From contig CBDDPY010000002.1 of the NCBI GenBank assembly GCA_965232515.1, positions 3,488,001 through 3,552,000 on the forward strand: a stretch of DNA of 64,000 bases, given 5' to 3'. The stretch comes from Alphaproteobacteria bacterium (GTDB taxonomy: Bacteria; Pseudomonadota; Alphaproteobacteria; GCA-2731375). The notes under the pieces are model-generated. The model was given only the letters and a program-made list of their open reading frames with translations. It was not told the DNA's origin and made no database searches. Shown here piece by piece: positions 12,913 to 22,467 of this stretch. Both the position numbers and the translations under genes were made by a program. Within the stretch, counting starts at the first letter, position 1. Each line of letters starts with the position of its first letter.

Positions 12913-14451
12913 CTAACTCCCCGCGATGCGGCGGTCGTGGCCCGACCAGTGGGGTTCGCGGAGGTCCTTGCGTTTGATTTTGCCGACCGGGCTTTTGGGG
13001 AGCGGGTCGGTGCGGAATTCGACGCGGCCGGGCTTTTTGTAGGAGCCGAGGCGGTCGGTGCAGAGGTCGATGATTTCCTGCTCGGATACCGGCGTCTCGC
13101 CGTCGGTGACGCAGACGGCCATGGGCGTTTCGCCCCAGCGCTCGTGCGGCACGCCGAAGACGGCGACCTCGACCACGGCGGGATGGTCGGTGATGACGTT
13201 CTCGAGCTCGGCGGGCCAGATGTTGTAGCCGCCGGAGATGATCATGTCGTCGGACCGGTCCAGCATGTAGAGATAGCCGTTCTCGTCCAGCATGCCGATG
13301 TCGCCGGTCAGCACCCAGCCGTCGACCAGGCGCTCGGCCGTGGCTTCGGGATTGTTCCAGAAACCGACCATCTGGCCGTCGGTTTTGGCGGCGATCTCGC
13401 CGGCCTGGCCGGGCGGCAGCGGCTTGTTGTCGTCGTCGCGGATCTCGAGCTGGGCGAACGGCAGCGCGAGACCACAGGAACGCAGCGGCGTCGAGCCGTC
13501 GACGTCGGCGAACCATTGCCGCGGGCCCATCATGGCGACCGGCAGCACCTCGGTCTGGCCATAGCCCTGATAGAGCACGTCGCCGAAGATCTCGCGGCCG
13601 GTGAGCGCGGTGTCGTCGGCGATCGGCGCCGCCGCGATCAGCAGGCATTTCAACTTCGACCAGTTGCGTTCGCGCACGCCCGGCAGATGGTTGAGGGCGT
13701 TCAGCATGGTCGGGACCAGGAACATATAGGCGATGCCCTCGCCCTCCATGACGTCCAGCGTCTCGACCGGATCGAAATGGTCGAGCATGACGTTGCAGCC
13801 GCCGCCGAGCCAGACCGGCACGAACAGATAGCCGGAGCCGTGGCTGATCGGCCCGAGATGCAGGCAGGGATCGCCCGGCTCGACCGGCGGATAGAGATAG
13901 AACCAGTCGCGCCCGGCGGCGAGCCAGGCGCGATGCGTATAGGCGACGCCCTTGGACTGGCCGGTGGTGCCGCCGGTATGGCGGATGATGTAATTGTCGT
14001 CGGGATCGATCTCGAGGTTGGGATCGATATCGGAATGGCCGGCGAGCCAGGCCTCGTAGCCGTCGTCGCGCACGACGATGTGCCGGAGATCGTCGAGCTC
14101 GGCATCGATGCCGTCGACCTCGTGCGCGTACTTGTCGGCGACGATCACCGCCCGGCAGCCGGTATGGCCGAGCATGTGCAGATGCGCCTCGCGGCCGTTG
14201 CGCGGATAGAGCGGCACGCGCACGACATTGGCGACGGCGGCGCCCAGAAAGATGTCAGCCGACTCGACGCAATTGTCTTCCAGCACGCCGACGCGATCGC
14301 CGGGCTTCAGGCCCATGGCGATCAGCGCGTTGCCCATGCGCACGCCGCGCGCCCAGGCCTCGGCGAAGGTCAGCCGCCGGCCGCCGGCGACGATCGCCTC
14401 CCGCGTGGGATAAAACTGCGCGGCGCGGCGCATCTGCGTGCGCACATCCAT
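12913..14451 (-). CDS. AMP-dependent acyl-CoA synthetase/ligase
   Basis: HTGGTTGQSKG P-loop, YQGYGQTE, GWVLTGDIG, DRSDDMIISGGYNIWPAELE, LPKSPVGKI. Confidence 0.92.
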   Translation of the reverse strand: MDVRTQMRRAAQFYPTREAIVAGGRRLTFAEAWARGVRMGNALIAMGLKPGDRVGVLEDNCVESADIFLGAAVANVVRVPLYPRNGREAHLHMLGHTGCRAVIVADKYAHEVDGIDAELDDLRHIVVRDDGYEAWLAGHSDIDPNLEIDPDDNYIIRHTGGTTGQSKGVAYTHRAWLAAGRDWFYLYPPVEPGDPCLHLGPISHGSGYLFVPVWLGGGCNVMLDHFDPVETLDVMEGEGIAYMFLVPTMLNALNHLPGVRERNWSKLKCLLIAAAPIADDTALTGREIFGDVLYQGYGQTEVLPVAMMGPRQWFADVDGSTPLRSCGLALPFAQLEIRDDDNKPLPPGQAGEIAAKTDGQMVGFWNNPEATAERLVDGWVLTGDIGMLDENGYLYMLDRSDDMIISGGYNIWPAELENVITDHPAVVEVAVFGVPHERWGETPMAVCVTDGETPVSEQEIIDLCTDRLGSYKKPGRVEFRTDPLPKSPVGKIKRKDLREPHWSGHDRRIAGS

Positions 14452-14660
14452 GACATTCCTCCCAAAACAGACTGGTTCCCGGCGGCCGAGTTTAAGCGGA
14501 ATTCAATCGGCGCGCAGCACGGGACGGCGACGCGGCGATGGATTTGCAAACATTTCATCCGATGCACCCGACCGCGACCGGAAATTTCAACGCCACACCA
14601 AAAATAGAAAATATATTTGCATTTACTACTTAATCGTGTGTCTCTAAAAGTTGCCGCCTT

Positions 14661-14747
14661 GGTCGGGCCGGGGTTGTTGGCTTATCGCTCCCCAAGCATC
14701 GTGCTTTCAAAGCACAACGTGGCGCCAGCGACGAAACACGCCCGACC
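14661..14747 (+). ncRNA. Y RNA-like element 1 (minimal central domain)
   Basis: GGTCGGGC pairs with GCCCGACC; GTTGTTGGC pairs with GCCAGCGAC; has the shared TTATCG after the upper stem and ACACGCCC on the 3' side; small GTGCTT/AAGCAC hairpin. Confidence 0.7.
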
Positions 14748-14798
14748 GGGACAGGTTTTTGGAGTTCGGGGACGCGTCACGAGAGATGTCGTCCTGAA

Positions 14799-14926
14799 GT
14801 CCGGGCCGGAGAAGCAGGTTTATCGTTAACCTAATGGTCGGCGGTTCGATTCCGCCTCCGAACACTGGTTCGGATAGCTCAGTTGGCAGAGCACTAGGCT
14901 TACCTGGTTCACAAACACGCCCGGGC
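14799..14926 (+). ncRNA. yrlA: YrlA-class Y RNA (circularly permuted tRNA mimic)
   Basis: Closing stems GTCCGGGC/GCCCGGGC and GAAGCAGGT/ACCTGGTTC enclose a T-arm (GGCGG-TTCGATT-CCGCC), a loop-closed acceptor-like stem (TCCGAAC-ACTG-GTTCGGA) and a D-arm (TAGCTC-AGTTGGCA-GAGC), in T-A-D order; about 600 nt upstream of a Ro60 gene. Confidence 0.88.
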
Positions 14927-14969
14927 ACCGAAACCGCCTGAAGGCAGTTGGGTTGAGACGGAGGATGGC

Positions 14970-15086
14970 ATGACGAATACGCGATTTATCGACGGCTGGT
15001 CGAAAACGCCGTCGACGTACGTCGCCACGTCCGTTCGCGAGACCTGGCTGAATACGTCGGCCGGCAAACCGAATTATCGGTACTGA
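14970..15086 (+). CDS. Putative 38-aa small protein inside the Y RNA array
   Basis: GGAGG Shine-Dalgarno 5 nt upstream of ATG; MTNTRFIDGWSKTPSTYVATSVRETWLNTSAGKPNYRY*. Confidence 0.4.
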   Translation: MTNTRFIDGWSKTPSTYVATSVRETWLNTSAGKPNYRY

Positions 15087-15191
15087 CGACCGGCCGCTGA
15101 TCCGCGCGACAGCACAACATCACCGCAGCAAACCGGCAGGCCCAGGTTGGGCCTGACTGATCGGTCGGCGTCCCGCGTCGACAGATCCACG

Positions 15192-15321
15192 AGGTTTGGG
15201 CCGAAGGGTCAGGCTTATCGTAGCGACGAAAGGGCGGAAAGCCCGTCGCAGCGTTCCACCGAGGACGTGAGTCCCGTGAACGCGGGCGAAGACCGCCTGG
15301 TCCGCCGACACGCCCAAGCCT
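15192..15321 (+). ncRNA. Y RNA-like element 3 (non-tRNA multi-hairpin domain)
   Basis: AGGTTTGGGC/GCCCAAGCCT and GGGTCAGGC/GCCTGGTCC stems; GGGCCGAAG, GGCTTATCG and ACACGCCC motifs; internal hairpins GCGAC/GTCGC, GGGC/GCCC and GGAC-GTGA-GTCC. Confidence 0.75.
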
Positions 15322-15365
15322 TGCCGCGGCGACAGTGCGACGCGCACGCAATCCAAACATGAACC

Positions 15366-15505
15366 GGCGGTCCGGGCCGGCAGATCAGGCTTATCGTAGC
15401 CATAAGGCAACTGGTGTTTGGCCAGTGTAGGCGCCCCACCGAGGGCGCGAACCCCCCGTGGATGCGGGCGATGCCCGCCTGATCGAACGACACGCCCGGA
15501 CCGCC
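15366..15505 (+). ncRNA. Y RNA-like element 4 (non-tRNA multi-hairpin domain)
   Basis: GGCGGTCCGGGC/GCCCGGACCGCC (12 bp) and GATCAGGC/GCCTGATC stems; GGCTTATCGTAGC and ACACGCCC motifs; ends 17 nt before the rsr ATG. Confidence 0.75.
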
Positions 15506-15522
15506 CCGTTGGGGTAGAGACG

Positions 15523-17136
15523 ATGACTTTGCGAGATCTGTTTTCGCGGCGCCGGACGCCGCAGCACGAAGCTTTGCCCGGCCAGGTGGCGAACGCGGCC
15601 GGCGGGCATGCCTTCGCCGTCGATGACTGGGACCGGCTCGACCGGTTTCTGGTGCTCGGCAGCGAGGACGGCACGTTCTACATCGCGCCGCGCGCATTGA
15701 CGCGCGAGAACGCCGAAGCCGTCGAACGTTGCCTGGCCGCCGACGGCGCGCGGGTCGTTGCCCGCGTGGTCGAAATCTCCGATGCCGGCCGCACGCCAAA
15801 GAACGACCCGGCGCTGTTCGTGCTCGCCATGGCGACGGCCAGCGACGATCAGGCGACCCGACAGGCGGCGTTGGCCGCGCTGCCCCAGGTGGCGCGGACC
15901 GGCACGCACCTGTTCCACTTCGCCGAGTTCGTCGAGGGCTTTCGCGGCTGGGGCCGCGGCCTGCGGCGGGCGGTTGCAAGCTGGTACGGCGATCAGCCGA
16001 TCGACCGGCTGGCGCTGCAGATGGTCAAGTACCGGCAGCGGGACGGCTGGTCGCACCGCGACCTGTTGCGGCTCGCGCACCCGGTCACGGCCGATCCGCA
16101 GCGTCGCGCGCTGTTCGAATGGGCCCTGCGTGGCGGCGGCGCCCCCGCGTTGCCAATGTTGGCGCAGGGGTTCGATGCGGCGCAGGCACCGGGGGCCGAC
16201 GTGCCGGCGCTGATCCGGCGGCACGGCCTGCCGCGTGAGGCGTTGCCGACCGACGCGTTGAACGACGTCGCGGTCTGGGCGGCGCTGCTGGAACGGATGC
16301 CGATGACGGCGACGATCCGCAGCCTCGCCAAGATGTCGGCGGTCGGTCTGCTGCGGCCGATGAGCGAGGCGGCCGCCCAGGTCGCGACGCGGCTGGGCGA
16401 CGGCGAAGCGCTGCGCAAGGCGCGGGTGCATCCGCTGGCGCTGCTGGTGGCGCAGTCCGTCTACGCGCAGGGCCGTGGCTTGCGGGGCAAGCTGGAATGG
16501 GAGCCGGTCGCGGAGGTGATCGACGCGCTGGACGCCGCATTCTACCGGGCCTTCGCCAACGTCGAGCCGACCGGCAAGCGGCTGCTGCTGGCGCTCGACG
16601 TGTCCGGCAGCATGACCTGGGGCCAGGTCGCGGGCTCGCCGCTGACGCCGCGTGAGGCCGCCGCCGCCATGGTGCTGGTCACCGCGGCGACGGAGCGCCA
16701 CGTGCGCACCGTCGGCTTCTCGTCGGCCGGCCGGCTGCAGTCGCGGGGCATGTTCGGTGGCAGCCGCGCCGACCACGGCCTGGTGTCGTTGCCGATCTCG
16801 CCGGGACAGCGGTTGGCGGACGTTCTGCGGATCACCGCCGATCTGCCGTTCGGTGGCACCGACTGTGCCCTGCCGATGCTGTACGCATTGGATCGGGGAC
16901 TCGAGGTCGACGCGTTCGTGGTCTACACGGACTCGGAGACCTGGGCCGGGAAGATCCACCCGGTGCAGGCCTTGCGCGACTACCGGCGCAAGACCGGTAT
17001 CGCGGCAAAGCTGGTGGTGGTCGGCATGGTGTCGAACGGCTTTTCGATCGCCGATCCGGACGATGCCGGCATGCTGGACGTGGTCGGCTTCGACGCCGCC
17101 GCGCCAGCCGTCGTCGCCGACTTCATCCGGCGTTAG
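15523..17136 (+). CDS. rsr: Ro60 / TROVE-domain RNA-binding protein (Rsr)
   Basis: RLDRFLVLGSEDGTFY, RTGTHLFHF, KYRQRDGWSHRDLLRLAHP, KARVHP, vWA MIDAS LALDVSGSM, GGTDCALPM, YTDSETWAG, SIADPDDAGMLDVVGFD. Confidence 0.96.
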   Translation: MTLRDLFSRRRTPQHEALPGQVANAAGGHAFAVDDWDRLDRFLVLGSEDGTFYIAPRALTRENAEAVERCLAADGARVVARVVEISDAGRTPKNDPALFVLAMATASDDQATRQAALAALPQVARTGTHLFHFAEFVEGFRGWGRGLRRAVASWYGDQPIDRLALQMVKYRQRDGWSHRDLLRLAHPVTADPQRRALFEWALRGGGAPALPMLAQGFDAAQAPGADVPALIRRHGLPREALPTDALNDVAVWAALLERMPMTATIRSLAKMSAVGLLRPMSEAAAQVATRLGDGEALRKARVHPLALLVAQSVYAQGRGLRGKLEWEPVAEVIDALDAAFYRAFANVEPTGKRLLLALDVSGSMTWGQVAGSPLTPREAAAAMVLVTAATERHVRTVGFSSAGRLQSRGMFGGSRADHGLVSLPISPGQRLADVLRITADLPFGGTDCALPMLYALDRGLEVDAFVVYTDSETWAGKIHPVQALRDYRRKTGIAAKLVVVGMVSNGFSIADPDDAGMLDVVGFDAAAPAVVADFIRR

Positions 17137-17200: not shown

Positions 17201-18733
17201 TCAGCCTTCGCTGCGGTTCCACGCGCCGGTGAAGCCGAGCGGGCCGCCCTCGGCGGTGACGCCGATGGCTTCGTGCGGCGGGCGGCAGACGACGTTCTTG
17301 CCCTTCCACGGATTGGCCCAGATCGCCACGCCCTTCGGCTTGCCGGCTTGATCGACGCGCTTGTTGACGACGTGCAGGCCGCGGATGGTGATCCGGCCCA
17401 TGGCGATGTCGGAGACATCCGGATTGGTCTGGGCCCGACGCGTCATCCAGGCGCAGAGATTGGCCTCGCCGTAGTTTTTGTCGGTGCGCGGCGAGCCGTC
17501 CTTCAGGTTCGCCTTGTCCGTACCGAAGCCGATGGCCAGCCATTGCGGGCCGTTCGGCTTCACGCACCTGACCTCGCGGATCACGGTGGCGCCGCCCTGG
17601 GGCACCTCGATGCAGGCGCCGGCGGACGCCTCGTAGACGCCGCCCTGGAAGTAGTTCACGGCGCAACGGCTCTTGGCGCCATGCGCCATGACGTTGTTGA
17701 CCGAGGTGACGTCGACCATCACCAGCATCGGGCAGAACCGCTTGCGGCGCCAATCGCCCGAGGCATAGATGCCGTGCGCGCCGTTGGAGTTGGCGCAACC
17801 GTCGAGCCGCGTGTTGAACAGCATCACCCAGCGCCCGGTCGTGCGCACGCAATTGTCCATGCCCTTGATGGTCATGTCGATCAGCACCAGCCGCGAGTCC
17901 CGCCGGCTGGTGGCGCCGATGCCAGCGGTGTATTTGCCGTAAGCCTTGCCGGCCACCGTGAAGCCTTCCATGGTCATGATGCGGTCGGCGTTGTGGCTCA
18001 GACAAAAGCTGCCGCCGCCGGGCCAGCCGTCGCGACAATCGATGACGGTCGGCCGCGTCTTGTCCTGCGCCCGCAGGCGCGACGCATTACGGGCGAACGT
18101 CTCGGTCGCGATCTTGCCGTTGGCGTTCTGATGCTGGCCGATGACGCGGATCGAATGGGTGCCGGGCAGGATCGCGATGCCGCCGTCCTTGGTCCGCCAG
18201 CTTCGCCACTGCCGGTCCGCCTGCAGGATCGAACCGTTGACACCGCGCATGCCGGCATACTGCGGATTCGACCTCAGATCGGCCACACAGGCCCAGGGCT
18301 TGCCGCAATCGACCGTATCGGGGCCGGGACGGCCGAGCCGCAAATACGGTTTCACGAGCGCGAGCACCGTCCGCTCGTTCTCGGTGCCGGCGATGGGCGG
18401 CCCGGCATCGACCACCACCGGCGCGGCGCGGCCGGTCACCACGGCCGGCCCCGGCGGGGCCGGTTTTTCAGCCTTCGGCGGCTCAGCCGCGGGTGGCGCC
18501 GCGGGTGCGTCGCGCTCAGCGGACGCGGCCGGTTGCTCGACCGGCACCGGCGTCAGCAGGAATTCTCCCTCGAGGCGATAGCGTTTGCCATCGATGGTGA
18601 CCTCGAGCTGAGACTGCGCCACCGCGCCCTGCCAACCAAGCGCCAGCAGCAGCAAGCCGCCAATGCCGGCCCAACGCGCGCGCCGCCAGACAAGCGAAAG
18701 ACTGGCAAGAAATATCATTGAACACCGTGTCAT
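17201..18733 (-). CDS. Exported protein with a probable right-handed parallel beta-helix (pectin-lyase-like) domain and Pro/Ala linker
   Basis: Signal-peptide-like segment ending AVA-QS; PAAAPPAAEPPKAEKPAPP linker; DNCVRT, GAHGIYASG, HGAKSRCAVNYF and IEVPQGGATVIR segments resemble beta-helix proteins. Start uncertain. Confidence 0.55.
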   Translation of the reverse strand: MTRCSMIFLASLSLVWRRARWAGIGGLLLLALGWQGAVAQSQLEVTIDGKRYRLEGEFLLTPVPVEQPAASAERDAPAAPPAAEPPKAEKPAPPGPAVVTGRAAPVVVDAGPPIAGTENERTVLALVKPYLRLGRPGPDTVDCGKPWACVADLRSNPQYAGMRGVNGSILQADRQWRSWRTKDGGIAILPGTHSIRVIGQHQNANGKIATETFARNASRLRAQDKTRPTVIDCRDGWPGGGSFCLSHNADRIMTMEGFTVAGKAYGKYTAGIGATSRRDSRLVLIDMTIKGMDNCVRTTGRWVMLFNTRLDGCANSNGAHGIYASGDWRRKRFCPMLVMVDVTSVNNVMAHGAKSRCAVNYFQGGVYEASAGACIEVPQGGATVIREVRCVKPNGPQWLAIGFGTDKANLKDGSPRTDKNYGEANLCAWMTRRAQTNPDVSDIAMGRITIRGLHVVNKRVDQAGKPKGVAIWANPWKGKNVVCRPPHEAIGVTAEGGPLGFTGAWNRSEG

Positions 18734-19137
18734 GGTCGCGCCGACGGTCTCTTTCGACCTTTCAGGCCGGACCGTCGTGTTGCCAGACAGTATAACCGGA
18801 ACCGCGCCGATCGCGACCTCAGCGGATATGACTGGATGTGGGAAGCGGCGCGGCTGCAACAAGTTTTGTTTGGTATTTTATATAAATACAAATCGTCTCT
18901 TTAATAAAAATTCAATTTTTCTTAAATGATCTCTAATTTCACAAGTATTCTTGCATCAAAATCAAACAATCACGGCTCAAAGCGGGACGTTTTTCTGACA
19001 CAAATTGTACCATCTCGTATCGGCAATGTCCGGAAATCCCAGGATTCCGGGGTTCGGCCGTTTGGCCCGCCACCTGCAATGATAGCGGTTGGGAGCCGCA
19101 CGGGTGCGGCGTTCGGTTAACGGAGGGCAGCAGAGCC

Positions 19138-19515
19138 ATGCAGGCACAGAACCGCCAAATTCTCGACTATTTCGGTTTCCTCCGGACGCTGAACCACGTC
19201 GACCCCGTTGCCGGCGACCGCCTGGCCGCGCAGCTCGACGACGATCTGTGCTACGAGTTCAGCAGCGCCCAGCACGAAGTCGATGGCGCCCTGGAAATCC
19301 ATACGACGGAATCGGTCAGGACCGCGGCAGATACGGCGCCGCAGATCAGCGTGCACCGGATTTTGCAGGTCGAACGGGGCCGGAACTGCCGGATCGATCG
19401 GGAAAAGATCGTCATCGACGGCTATTTCGACGACATCGACCGCCTGGGCTCGTCGCTGTTCACCTTCCTGACGGAACACGGGTTCGACCGGGTCGCGGGC
19501 GACGCGACCGCTTAG
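19138..19515 (+). CDS. Hypothetical protein (125 aa)
   Basis: GGAGGG upstream, GC-rich third positions, no motif recognised. Confidence 0.6.
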   Translation: MQAQNRQILDYFGFLRTLNHVDPVAGDRLAAQLDDDLCYEFSSAQHEVDGALEIHTTESVRTAADTAPQISVHRILQVERGRNCRIDREKIVIDGYFDDIDRLGSSLFTFLTEHGFDRVAGDATA

Positions 19516-19571
19516 GCCGAACCGCTCAATCGCGGCCGGCGAGGCGGTCGGCCGCGTTCGTTTGCTAAACC

Positions 19572-19599
19572 AACCGTAAATCCCGTTTTACGGTTTTTT
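19572..19599 (+). promoter_or_regulatory. Inverted repeat AACCGTAAA-N6-TTTACGGTT plus T-run (operator or weak terminator)
   Basis: Perfect 9-bp arms about 100 nt upstream of the SGNH-MBOAT operon. Confidence 0.45.
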
Positions 19600-19691
19600 A
19601 TTCGTTCTCGCGCATACTTCCGACGAATTCGGAACCGGCGCATTCGTTCGCCCAGTATTCAAATTTGAGCCGATAGTAAAAGAGGCGACAG

Positions 19692-20918
19692 ATGCAAGCC
19701 ACCGCGCGCGGCGCCCTGCCAGCACCGAGCAATCCCGACGACTCGCAAGATCACGACGTTGCCCAGGCGCCGGAAGGCTCCGACATCTCAGCCATTGGCG
19801 CGCTGTCGGCGCAAGACGGTGAGAGCGAGATCGGCCCCGGCCAATATGTCTTTCTGATGGCGCTGGTTATCGTCGGCGTGCTGACGGGCGTCGCCTTCGC
19901 CAATCACAACCTCACCCCCCTGATCTATCAGGAGCCGGCGCAGGCCGAGGTCGCCCAGACCCTCCATGGCGGCCAGAATTACGCGCTCTACGACCTGAAC
20001 TTCGAGATCCGCGGCGTCCGCCGGCATCAGATCCGGCTGATGACCAAAACGCCCGAGTTGATCATCCTGGGCGCCAGTCACTGGCAGGAAGCGCATGCCG
20101 GCCTGGTGCCGGGCGTGGACTTCTTCAACGCCCATGTGCACCGGGATTACTACGACGATCCCATCGGCATGGTCGGCCACCTGCTCGACTACAACCGCCT
20201 GCCGAAGACTCTTGTGATCAGCGTGCGCGACGCCACCTTCACGCCGGTCGCGGAGCGGACCGACTATCTCTGGCTGGGCGGCATCCCGTCCTTCCGGGCC
20301 ATGGAACCCCGCCTCGGCCTGCCGAAACGGCCGTGGTACGAGGACTACCATCTGCAGCCGGTGCTGGACCTGTTCTCCCTGCGATTGGCCATCACCGGCG
20401 GCTTGCGCGAGCTGCGCGCGGAGAACCGGCCCGGCCCGACGGATGCCGATTTCGCCGAGGACCTGGACATCTTCATGGCCGACGGCTCGATCCGCTGGTC
20501 GGGCGAGCACCTCGCCGCCTTCACGCCTGAATATGTCCGCGACCGGGCGCTGGAAATGGCCCAGCACGTCCGCCGGCATCCGCCACGGATCAACGCCGAC
20601 ACGGTCGACGCCTTCCGCCGCATGCTGGCGCTGCTGCAGAACCACGACGTCGATGTTGTGCTGGCCCATCCGCCGTTCAATCCGCAGTTCCACGACGCCG
20701 TCGCCGGCAGCGACTATGCCGATCACCTGAACGCCGTCGAGGCCCTGACCCGGGATCTCGCCGCGCAGTACGGCGCCCGCACCGCCGGCAGCTTCGATCC
20801 CGCCCGGGTCGGCTGCACGGCCGACATGTATATCGATTCCGAGCACAGCCGGCCGGTCTGCCTGCAGAAACTGCTGACGCAGGTCGTGTCCGGCCGCTCA
20901 CAGGCGCCGTCGCTTTAG
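19692..20918 (+). CDS. Membrane-anchored SGNH-like acyltransferase (DltD/AlgJ/AlgX-like)
   Basis: One N-terminal TM helix; LIILGASH (GxS block I-like) and C-terminal MYIDSEH (DxxH); directly upstream of an MBOAT gene. Confidence 0.65.
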   Translation: MQATARGALPAPSNPDDSQDHDVAQAPEGSDISAIGALSAQDGESEIGPGQYVFLMALVIVGVLTGVAFANHNLTPLIYQEPAQAEVAQTLHGGQNYALYDLNFEIRGVRRHQIRLMTKTPELIILGASHWQEAHAGLVPGVDFFNAHVHRDYYDDPIGMVGHLLDYNRLPKTLVISVRDATFTPVAERTDYLWLGGIPSFRAMEPRLGLPKRPWYEDYHLQPVLDLFSLRLAITGGLRELRAENRPGPTDADFAEDLDIFMADGSIRWSGEHLAAFTPEYVRDRALEMAQHVRRHPPRINADTVDAFRRMLALLQNHDVDVVLAHPPFNPQFHDAVAGSDYADHLNAVEALTRDLAAQYGARTAGSFDPARVGCTADMYIDSEHSRPVCLQKLLTQVVSGRSQAPSL

Positions 20919-20943: not shown

Positions 20944-22467
20944 ATGCTTTTCCATTCCGTTGAGTTCATTCTGGGCTTTCTGCCCATCTGCTTCATCATC
21001 TTCGCGATCGTGCACCGCACGGCCGGCAAGCGGGCGGCGCTGGCGTGGCTGGCGCTGGCGTCGATTATCTTCTATGCGCAATGGAGCCTGGCGCATGGCG
21101 CCTTGCTGGTGGGTTCGGTCGGCACGAACTACCTGTTCAGCCGGGCCATGCTGCGCACCGATCAGCAGCCGAAGCTGCGACAGGCGATCTTTATCCTCGC
21201 GATCGCGGCGAACCTCGCCCTGCTCGGCTATCTGAAGTACACGAACTTCCTGATCGACAATATCAACGCGCTGACCGAGGCGAACTATCACTATGTCGCC
21301 GTGCTGGCGCCCGTCGGCATCTCGTTCTTCACCTTCATCCAGATCGGCTTCCTGGTCGAGGTCTACAACCGCCAGGTCTCGCGCCTGTCGATCGTCGACT
21401 ATTTCCTGTTCGGCTCGTTCTTCGGCTACGTGACCGCCGGTCCGCTGGTCCTGCAGCGCGACATGACCTCGCAGTTCGAGCGCAAAGACGACAAGGTGCT
21501 CGATCTGTCGCGAATCTCGATCGCGATCACGGTCTTCGGCTTCGGCCTGTTCAAGAAGATGGTGCTGGCCGACAGCGTCGCGCCCTATGCCGACGCAGTC
21601 TTCAACGGCGTCGCCGACGGCGCGCTGCCATCGACCAGCCTGGCCTGGATCGGCGCGCTGGCTTACACCGTGCAGCTCTATTTCGACTTCTCCGGCTATT
21701 CCGACATGGCGCTGGGCGCCGGCCTGCTGTTCGGCTTGAAGCTGCCGTTCAACTTCAATTCGCCGCTGAAAGCGACCAGCATCACCGATTTCTGGCGCCG
21801 CTGGCACATGACGATGACGCGGTTCTTCACCAACTATCTGTATTCACCGCTGGCCGTCGCCGCGACCCGGCGGGCCATGGCCAACAAGTCTTCGAAGGCT
21901 CAGCGATTTGTCGCCTCCGTCGCCGTGCCGGTGTTCTTCACCTTTCTGCTGGCCGGCATCTGGCACGGCGCGGGCTGGACCTTCGTCATCTTCGGCGCGA
22001 TCCACGGCCTGGCCATGGCGATCAATCACGCCTGGCGCCAATCCAAGGCGCCGACGCTGCCGGCGCCGGCGGGCTGGCTGCTGACAATGTCGGTGGTCAT
22101 TACCGGCCTGGTGTTCTTCCGGGCGCCGGACGTGTCGACCGCGCTGGTCATCCTGACCGCGATGGTCGGCGCCGGCGCCGACGCCAGCGGCTGGGTCGCG
22201 ACCGTCAACGTGCCGACTGTGTCCTATCCAGACGCCGTCGCCGTCATCACGCTGCTGGCCGCCATCGCCCTGATGATGCCGAACACGCAGCAGATCCTGT
22301 ACCGCCACAAGATCAGCTCGGACCCGGCCGACTACGAGGAGCTGTCGTTGTCGAAGTGGCTGCTCTGGCGACCGACGCTGCGCTGGGCGGCAACCTGCGG
22401 CATCGTCGTCGCCGTGGCGCTCGGCCTGGCGACCGGCGAGACCGCGTTCATCTATTACCAGTTCTGA
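20944..22467 (+). CDS. MBOAT family O-acyltransferase (AlgI/DltB-like)
   Basis: PVGISFFTFIQI, GLFKKMVLAD, QLYFDFSGYSDMALG, NFNSP, DFWRRWHMT, GIWHGAGWTF; C-terminus AFIYYQF. Confidence 0.95.
   Translation: MLFHSVEFILGFLPICFIIFAIVHRTAGKRAALAWLALASIIFYAQWSLAHGALLVGSVGTNYLFSRAMLRTDQQPKLRQAIFILAIAANLALLGYLKYTNFLIDNINALTEANYHYVAVLAPVGISFFTFIQIGFLVEVYNRQVSRLSIVDYFLFGSFFGYVTAGPLVLQRDMTSQFERKDDKVLDLSRISIAITVFGFGLFKKMVLADSVAPYADAVFNGVADGALPSTSLAWIGALAYTVQLYFDFSGYSDMALGAGLLFGLKLPFNFNSPLKATSITDFWRRWHMTMTRFFTNYLYSPLAVAATRRAMANKSSKAQRFVASVAVPVFFTFLLAGIWHGAGWTFVIFGAIHGLAMAINHAWRQSKAPTLPAPAGWLLTMSVVITGLVFFRAPDVSTALVILTAMVGAGADASGWVATVNVPTVSYPDAVAVITLLAAIALMMPNTQQILYRHKISSDPADYEELSLSKWLLWRPTLRWAATCGIVVAVALGLATGETAFIYYQF

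Follow-up and report, generated by a model that had tools for sequence, protein, structure and literature searches.

The stretch of DNA analysed here, which we call the window, is 64 kb long and comes from Alphaproteobacteria bacterium GCA_965232515.1 (contig CBDDPY010000002.1, positions 3,488,001-3,552,000, forward strand). It contains rsr, the gene for a 537-aa orthologue of Ro60, and the predicted Rsr protein is intact, with both its TROVE and vWA domains recognised by Pfam. Between rsr and a divergently oriented gene for an AMP-binding enzyme is a non-coding stretch (14650-15510, plus strand), in which four Y-RNA-like elements stand directly upstream of rsr. The last two, elements 3 and 4, are paralogues of about 130 nt each that together span roughly 20 to 330 nt upstream of rsr on the same strand, at distances of about 203 nt and 20-21 nt, respectively. 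Neither rtcB nor rtcA is recognisable beside rsr, and the overlapping frames at 17201-18862 (one per strand) and the other ORFs tested at 19089-20918 have no Pfam match. The features of the locus are these.

12913-14451, minus strand: gene for an AMP-binding enzyme, divergent from rsr.
14622-14650, plus strand: candidate sigma-70-type promoter for the whole array, picked out by eye (TTTACT, 17 nt, TAAAAG).
14660-14748, plus strand: element 1, a short Y-like hairpin with a basal stem as in the other elements.
14798-14927, plus strand: element 2, a YrlA-type, tRNA-like Y RNA (RF02553, 35.2 bits).
15193-15320, plus strand: element 3, 128 nt, delimited by its fold, a four-sequence alignment, pair counts, RNAalifold and model R1 (154.1 bits).
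15369-15502, plus strand: element 4, 134 nt, delimited by its fold, the sister-genome alignment and model R1 (165 bits).
15523-17136, plus strand: rsr (Pfam vWA_Ro60 9.3e-62, TROVE 9.6e-45).
20944-22467: an MBOAT acyltransferase in the rsr neighbourhood.

Around the candidate promoter, whose -35 hexamer reads TTGACT in the sister genome, the DNA is AT-rich and conserved up to about 10 nt before element 1. This AT-rich stretch (14590-14658, plus strand) is unusual for a GC-rich region and nearly unchanged in the sister genome, where the DNA just upstream is far more diverged; from its sequence, it is likely the promoter of the array. A scan for consensus sigma-70 promoters and terminators called no plus-strand promoter or terminator, 14622-14650 included, and so showed no plus-strand terminator inside the array or between the array and rsr. 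The conserved -35/-10 pair before element 1 and the absence of a plus-strand terminator from the array suggest that the elements belong to one transcript. Close relatives of the organism occur in a few sequencing runs (93-97% alike where aligned), two of which are labelled RNA-seq. One of these, run X4, is from a related strain; its contigs cover 14643-15205 and 15191-15597, with DNA carry-over possible, and one is continuous from element 3 via element 4 into rsr. These RNA-library contigs, which show neither ends nor strand, are compatible with transcription of the array, not proof of it.

Between elements 2 and 3 there is an open frame of 38 codons (14970-15086, plus strand) with GGAGGA 4 nt upstream, and its length is kept in the sister genome. 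The two versions differ by 13 base changes (3, 5 and 5 by codon position) that produce 11 residue changes, and a search of the frame against Pfam gave no match. Judged by this pattern of change, the frame is without a coding signature.

In all four elements, built on a common plan, a 9-bp outer stem (NNNNNGGGC/GCCCNNNNN) is followed by 5' CCG(A/G) and by a second helix with GGYUUAUCG at its end; the upper part varies, and the 3' side carries CGACACGCCC or a close variant. The UUAUCG junction and 3' ACACGCCC are common to elements 1 to 4, and only the inner 3' half is peculiar to elements 3 and 4. As GGYTTATCG and the 3' CGACACGCCC also occur in the Y-like elements of other rsr loci, these sequences are, by comparison across loci, generic features of the Y stem and not specific to elements 3 and 4. 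Element 1 weakly matches RF01656, the model of nematode sbRNA (25 bits at E 0.015, with a cut-off of 38), in a match that runs at 14659-14748 on the plus strand through the GGUCGGGCCGG...GGCUUAUC...CCCGACC stem and reflects the cross-kingdom likeness of the Ro-binding stem and the UUAUC motif. The match of element 2 to RF02553, although it falls below the cut-off of 69 bits, spans both the T-arm and the D-arm. In the sister genome, element 2 (locus L009, 2276-2404) has the T-loop UGAAAAU for UUCGAUU and the D-loop AACUAA for AGUUGGC, so that the elbow partners have changed together, from GG with UC to CU with GA; this could be a compensated tertiary contact or decay.

The helices of elements 3 and 4, all on the plus strand, are placed as follows.

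15193-15201/15312-15320: element 3, basal helix P1.
15202-15203/15306-15307: element 3, basal helix P1b.
15207-15214/15295-15302: element 3, basal helix P2.
15216-15220/15287-15291: element 3, basal helix P3.
15221-15250: element 3, variable region H1, a long bulged hairpin (GCGACG...GGGC GGAAA GCCC...GUCGC).
15251-15268: element 3, hairpin H2, a 6-bp stem GCGUUC/GGACGU with the hexaloop CACCGA.
15273-15286: element 3, hairpin H3, CCCGU/GCGGG with the loop GAAC.
15369-15377/15494-15502: element 4, basal helix P1.
15383-15390/15477-15484: element 4, basal helix P2.
15392-15396/15469-15473: element 4, basal helix P3.
15397-15430: element 4, counterpart of H1, consisting of two different hairpins.
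15431-15448: element 4, hairpin H2, GCGCCC/GGGCGC with the hexaloop CACCGA, inside the match of model R2 (15429-15473, 65.6 bits).
15455-15468: element 4, hairpin H3, CCCGU/GCGGG with the loop GGAU, from the fold and RNAalifold.

What elements 3 and 4 share with each other and with neither of the remaining elements is an inner module of two hairpins, H2 (GCGYYC[CRCCGA]GGRCGY) and H3 (CCCGU[GNNN]GCGGG). The fold as a whole is a junction with three or four hairpins that is closed by UAUCG/CGAWG. To assess it, we aligned four sequences, namely elements 3 and 4 of the window and their two counterparts in the sister genome (L009, identical with G001). RNAalifold alone predicts P1 (9 bp), P1b (2 bp), P2 (8 bp), P3 (UCG/CGA, extendable to UAUCG/CGAWG), a short common core of H1, H2 and H3; the basal part further includes a 3' bulge ACAC and a 5' GGGCCG(A/G) stretch. 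Across the alignment 98.0% of the 152 cells are paired, a share that falls to 29-40% if the 3' partners are shifted by 1 to 3 columns. P1, P1b and P2 are paired in every cell. Both partners differ in four of the pairs, of which P1 has two and H1 and H2 have one each. The one in H2 (pair 66:77) goes from U-A to C-G, two further H2 pairs alternate between a wobble (G-U or U-G) and a G-C or C-G pair, and all 24 cells of H2 are paired. H3 is paired in 19 of 20 cells, shows no covariation and carries a C.A mismatch in element 3 of the sister genome; H3 and P3, both free of covariation among these four sequences, are consistent with the data and not proven by them. The G-U pairs 24:105 and 91:96 are present in all four copies and are compatible with the plus strand only. 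The covariation has a thin base, four sequences of two close genomes. Element 4 has an MFE of -82.7 kcal/mol (z = -5.19, with 0 of 200 shuffles folding as well); such shuffle statistics are not to be taken as probabilities. Its MFE stem is extended by CGGCGG/CCGCC to about 15506.

The sequence-only reading of this region had proposed that elements 3 and 4 form a new class of non-tRNA Y RNA, held together by conserved strings, and every string it quoted is present in its place in 15192-15505. The 15-mer CAGGCTTATCGTAGC, described as a common start, has exactly two copies in the 64-kb window, one at 15210 and one at 15386 (3 matches when up to 3 mismatches are allowed, against a shuffle mean of 0.99). 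The 27-nt CCCGTGNNNGCGGGCGANGNCCGCCTG pattern is likewise found twice, at 15273 and 15455, and never in 100 shuffles, and GCG(TT/CC)CCACCGAGG is found at 15251 and 15431. The absence of a T-loop and D-loop is also borne out, as GTTCGA does not occur on the plus strand of 15192-15505 and neither ARAGORN nor the Rfam tRNA model finds a match; the copies of GTTCGA near the array are at 14844, in the tRNA-like element 2, and at 15483-15488 on the minus strand. Two points of architecture need correction. The RNA does not start at the CAGGC... sequence, which forms the 5' strand of the second helix; the 9-bp outer stem that closes each unit lies some 17 nt further out. The conserved inner part was drawn as a bulged helix with a small hairpin; we rejected a GCGYYC/GRAYGC helix enclosing a hairpin, for which 20 of 24 cells are paired against 24 of 24 for H2, and in the modelled structure two side-by-side hairpins, H2 and H3, fit better.

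The basal stem, by comparison, is not private to these two elements. Model R1, built from the whole of elements 3 and 4, gave 17 further matches at E<=0.01 in 14 loci other than that of the sister genome when 59 rsr loci were searched, and all 17 lie upstream of rsr on its own strand. In the alignments shown, these matches align via the outer stems, and their inner part is either deleted or aligns badly, which indicates that the basal stem is the widespread stem of Y RNAs. The motif GNCGAAN0-1G near the 5' end is described in PMC4201824 as the presumed Rsr contact of bacterial Y RNAs, and the 5' GGGCCG(A/G) stretch, from its sequence and place, would correspond to this published GNCGAA/CGAA motif. 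In element 3 the fit is direct, with GCCGAAG at 15201-15207. Element 4 has GCCGGCAG at the motif place and, with CGAA absent, does not fit GNCGAAN0-1G. Most of the Y-like elements shown from other alphaproteobacterial rsr loci have GGGCCGGAG there.

Conservation was measured by aligning the window to the sister genome over the whole locus (Rsr 93% identical), with the identity of third codon positions in rsr (0.868) as a rough neutral yardstick; that of the upstream intergenic DNA is 0.821. Element 4 is identical at 132 of 134 positions and element 1 at 86 of 89, and both evolve more slowly than rsr third positions (binomial P = 1.3e-6 and P = 0.0017, respectively); by this yardstick both are constrained. 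The 20-nt spacer between element 4 and rsr is conserved as well, at 20 of 21 columns. Element 2 matches at 92 of 130 positions. Element 3 matches at 118 of 129, and its 11 differing columns do not make it significantly slower than rsr third positions (P = 0.07); 6 changes fall in the 43 nt of its H2-H3 segment (P = 0.66). Six of the 11 differences are in paired columns, and five of these six keep or improve pairing, the compensatory H2 pair among them; the sister copy has one C-G of H3 changed to C.A and the H2 loop changed from CACCGA to CGCCGA. This rate near that of third positions, together with the changes in H2-H3, indicates that element 3 may be under relaxed constraint.

Comparison of the two paralogues gives a different view of the inner module. 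Elements 3 and 4 agree at only 11 of 30 columns in H1, as against 14 of 18 in H2, 12 of 14 in H3 and 10 of 10 in UUAUCGUAGC. The divergence of H1 beside the retention of H2, H3 and UUAUCGUAGC implies that the duplication is old and that the module has been kept, at least in element 4. The sequence-only reading took the CCACCGAGG/CCCGTG motif for a docking site. In favour of that idea is the conservation of the module between old paralogues, and it is weakened by the sister copy of element 3, in which the loop varies and one H3 pair is broken. On this sequence evidence we infer that H2-H3 may serve as a docking site.

We find the inner module at a single locus of a single genus. In 40 relatives, R1 detected the sister genome and one 29.5-bit match in a further genome (G017), which we regard as spurious since it contains many non-canonical pairs and Rsr was not seen in that genome. 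The two elements of the sister genome score 158.6 and 133.2 bits with R1, and the next-best match among rsr loci scores 41.4 bits. Model R2, made of H2-H3 only, gives its four training copies 64.7-65.6 bits, and nothing above 16.3 bits (E 0.29) elsewhere in the window and in 58 other rsr loci; in the rest of its own genome the best other match reaches 21.9 bits (E 0.22). In the 7.39-Mb genome both models match this locus only, which argues that elements 3 and 4 are not a dispersed repeat. A search of 150 other genomes of the class with R2 gave no match at E<=0.001, at a sensitivity limited by scoring at most 41 first-look candidates per genome. The exact inner motifs co-occur only in the window's genus among the 59 rsr loci. 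An exact-pattern scan of metagenome contigs, of a kind that would miss diverged copies, returned 37 stretches, the best scoring 16.4 bits with R1 (E 0.11); these are chance matches in GC-rich coding DNA, as TTATC upstream or ACACGYCC downstream is seen in none of the 37, and Rsr likewise in none. Viral contigs gave no match, and blastn gave none in plasmids and phages.

The expectation that the motif should recur at related rsr loci therefore fails outside the genus (0 of 58 other loci), and within it the sister genome keeps both elements. Rsr itself is patchy: of 33 genomes of the family it was found in 2, which both belong to the window's genus, so that close relatives provide no further loci. 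The 59 loci come from a scan of Rsr relatives with one genome per species. Beyond the genus, the closest Rsr proteins show 62-66% identity and come mostly from alphaproteobacteria, and relatives are also found in Polyangia, Armatimonadota, Chloroflexota and Verrucomicrobiota. The patchy occurrence of rsr and the distant taxa among its relatives suggest, on sequence comparison, that the whole cassette of rsr and Y RNAs moves horizontally.

Among known families, elements 3 and 4 have no counterpart that we could detect, in line with the sequence-only reading, which recognised none. At the Rfam gathering threshold over the whole window, and at E<=10 over 14500-15600, the two elements match no family, including YrlA (RF02553), the tRNA models, metazoan Y RNA (RF00019) and nematode sbRNA (RF01656). 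A literature search, with the per-species predictions of PMC4201824 outside its reach, turned up no description of the module or of another family of non-tRNA Y RNAs in bacteria. Chen et al. (2014, PMC4201824) recognise bacterial Y RNAs by a position on the same strand as the Ro60 orthologue and no more than a few kb from it, and by ends that pair into a long basal stem, and elements 3 and 4 have both. The locus type, the basal stem and the UUAUCG junction are those of YrlA as represented by element 2, but elements 3 and 4 lack its T-arm and D-arm.

The closest precedents are the second, non-YrlA Y RNAs described in PMC4201824 as species-specific, namely YrlB of S. Typhimurium and M. smegmatis and Yrn2 of D. 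radiodurans. According to that account, homology searches had overlooked them, and BLASTN found YrlB orthologues in S. enterica serovars only. They have a Ro-binding basal stem with a GNCGAA-type motif, which element 3 shows too. Like elements 3 and 4, they are located beside rsr on the same strand and next to a tRNA-like Y RNA and are restricted to a lineage; as described, they differ in forming a single long hairpin in place of the junction of H1, H2 and H3. Yrn1 of D. radiodurans, which tethers Rsr to PNPase through an effector domain of three stem-loops (10.1101/312249), combines a Ro-binding stem with a multi-stem-loop effector domain, as elements 3 and 4 would, and offers a working model for them. 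A T stem-loop with pseudouridine is reported for Yrn1 in the same source, whereas elements 3 and 4 have no T-loop. Yrl1 and Yrl2 of the Thermus phage phiLo, recognised by their structure and CGAA motif (PMC12135203), are again hairpins upstream of a Ro60 gene that belong to no family and have one or two upper hairpins. They differ in being phage-encoded and in that their binding to Ro60 is demonstrated by EMSA and cryo-EM, as PMC12135203 reports; of our two elements, only element 3 has CGAA.

A second non-tRNA Y-like type came to light at other alphaproteobacterial rsr loci, where it recurs at the following positions.

L011, 1666-1770.
L013, 2096-2203.
L014, 1783-1889.
L016, 295-403.
L017, 2478-2588.
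L030, 2074-2181.
L043, 1550-1654 and 1954-2063.
L064, 2378-2484.

It has the same basal stem as elements 3 and 4, the GGAUUAUC junction and two conserved upper hairpins, but these are of a different sequence (GCGGGC..GCCCGC and AGCAUC-GNRA-GAUGCU, enclosed by GGGG/CCCC) and R2 does not score them. The two hairpins are preceded by GGAUUAUCCUCC; GAGGA can pair with the adjacent UCCUC or with the 3' strand. This type looks a better candidate for a real family than elements 3 and 4. A crude stem scan, noisy in such GC-rich DNA, further hints at arrays before rsr in several alphaproteobacterial loci, with about nine tandem Y-like units at L043 (1550-2971) and about seven at L014 (1645-2964), in which tRNA-like and other types are mixed.

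Taking together the genomic context, the common basal stem and what has been published on how rsr loci behave, by far the best reading of elements 3 and 4 is that they are Y RNAs. By analogy with characterised Y RNAs, they are very likely Rsr-bound, with a non-tRNA effector module restricted to their lineage. The description as Y-RNA-like and non-tRNA stands, being supported by their position on the rsr strand, the covarying basal stem and the lack of an Rfam match. The further claim of a new class does not, as the module is found only in the window's genus, in two genomes and in near-identical strains from a few runs. The pair matches no catalogued family and is a lineage-specific pair of paralogues, not a demonstrated class; on present sequence data, its inner module is new and private to one uncultured genus.

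We propose the following explanation, which we judge the most probable of those considered, with real room left for others: elements 3 and 4 are old paralogous Y RNA genes that are co-transcribed, processed and bound by Rsr, and that carry an apical effector module. A promoter near 14622-14650 would give a single precursor of elements 1 to 4 and rsr, and elements 3 and 4 would then be cut out of it in the manner of YrlA and YrlB of M. smegmatis, which are processed from one precursor upstream of rsr (PMC4201824). The basal part (P1, P1b, the ACAC bulge and 5' GGGCCG(A/G)) would be the module that binds Rsr (Ro60), and the apical part a multi-hairpin junction composed of the freely diverging H1 and the conserved H2 and H3. 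Y RNAs in the accepted model (10.1101/312249) bind the outer face of the Ro60 ring with their basal stem and use the upper module either to tether an effector, e.g. PNPase, or to gate the ring. Following the example of Yrn1 and PNPase, the apical module of elements 3 and 4 might tether Rsr to an effector protein or gate the Rsr ring. We infer that the two elements are transcribed as discrete small RNAs that would bind Rsr and dock a partner. A stronger version, in which H2-H3 is a dedicated docking module for a partner unlike those of tRNA-like Y RNAs, elements 3 and 4 found a third subfamily and element 4 also senses the supply of Y RNA in cis, strikes us as improbable.

Other explanations place the function elsewhere or deny it. 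Element 4, perhaps with element 3, could act mainly in cis in the 5' leader of rsr, where bound Rsr would feed back on the translation or stability of the rsr mRNA and H2-H3 would be needed for folding or processing. The close spacing agrees with this, since P1 of element 4 ends at 15502, or its MFE stem at about 15506, and the rsr ATG is at 15523; element 4 is the best conserved element, the spacer behind it is conserved too, no plus-strand terminator was called before rsr, and the RNA-library contig runs from element 3 through element 4 into rsr. But co-transcription followed by processing is the published norm upstream of rsr, as PMC4201824 describes it, so that such adjacency is expected in any case, and element 3 carries the same module 200 nt further upstream. 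We consider a mainly cis-acting role unlikely, and we put a history of decay at about the same low level. In that history elements 3 and 4 are degenerate duplicates of a YrlA-type RNA, with H2 a remnant of the T-arm, in which Rsr binding is kept, the module is functionless and element 3 is drifting. Element 3 does evolve at about the rate of third codon positions (P = 0.07), and tRNA-like modules change fast at this locus, to judge from the YrlA-like element 2, which has lost its UUCGA loop in the sister genome. H2 also resembles a T-arm in its stem length and in the CGA of its loop (..CCGAG versus UUCGAUU, by eye). The H2 loop, however, lacks both hallmark U residues, elements 3 and 4 contain no equivalent of a D-arm, and the YrlA and tRNA models do not match them even at E<=10. 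Decay is also at odds with the similarity of H2-H3 between paralogues whose H1 agrees at 11 of 30 columns, and with the strong constraint on element 4.

We regard it as highly improbable that the elements are no RNA genes at all but a repeat, mobile or due to chance, or a piece of antisense coding sequence. Long antisense open frames do cross the region (14986-15360, 15120-15674 and 15215-15979), as is usual in GC-rich DNA, but a Pfam search at E<=0.1 gave no match for any of the three, and rsr, itself a well-supported gene, is overlapped by two of them. The window and the sister genome differ by single-base indels near 15187 and 15228. The elements repeat at one locus only, and their pairing is specific to one strand, with G-U pairs and compensatory changes.

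Seen as a pair of Rsr-associated Y RNAs, elements 3 and 4 bring a modest practical gain, in that about 260 nt of conserved intergenic DNA, for which there was no other explanation, can be annotated and R2 is available as a small reusable covariance model. YrlB and Yrn2 are without family models, each having been seen in one lineage only, and few effector partners of bacterial Y RNAs are known besides PNPase. Against this background, a locus that carries three types of module on one Ro-binding stem, namely a simple hairpin, a tRNA mimic and a two-hairpin module present twice, provides a compact test set for the role of the variable module and for the speed of its turnover.
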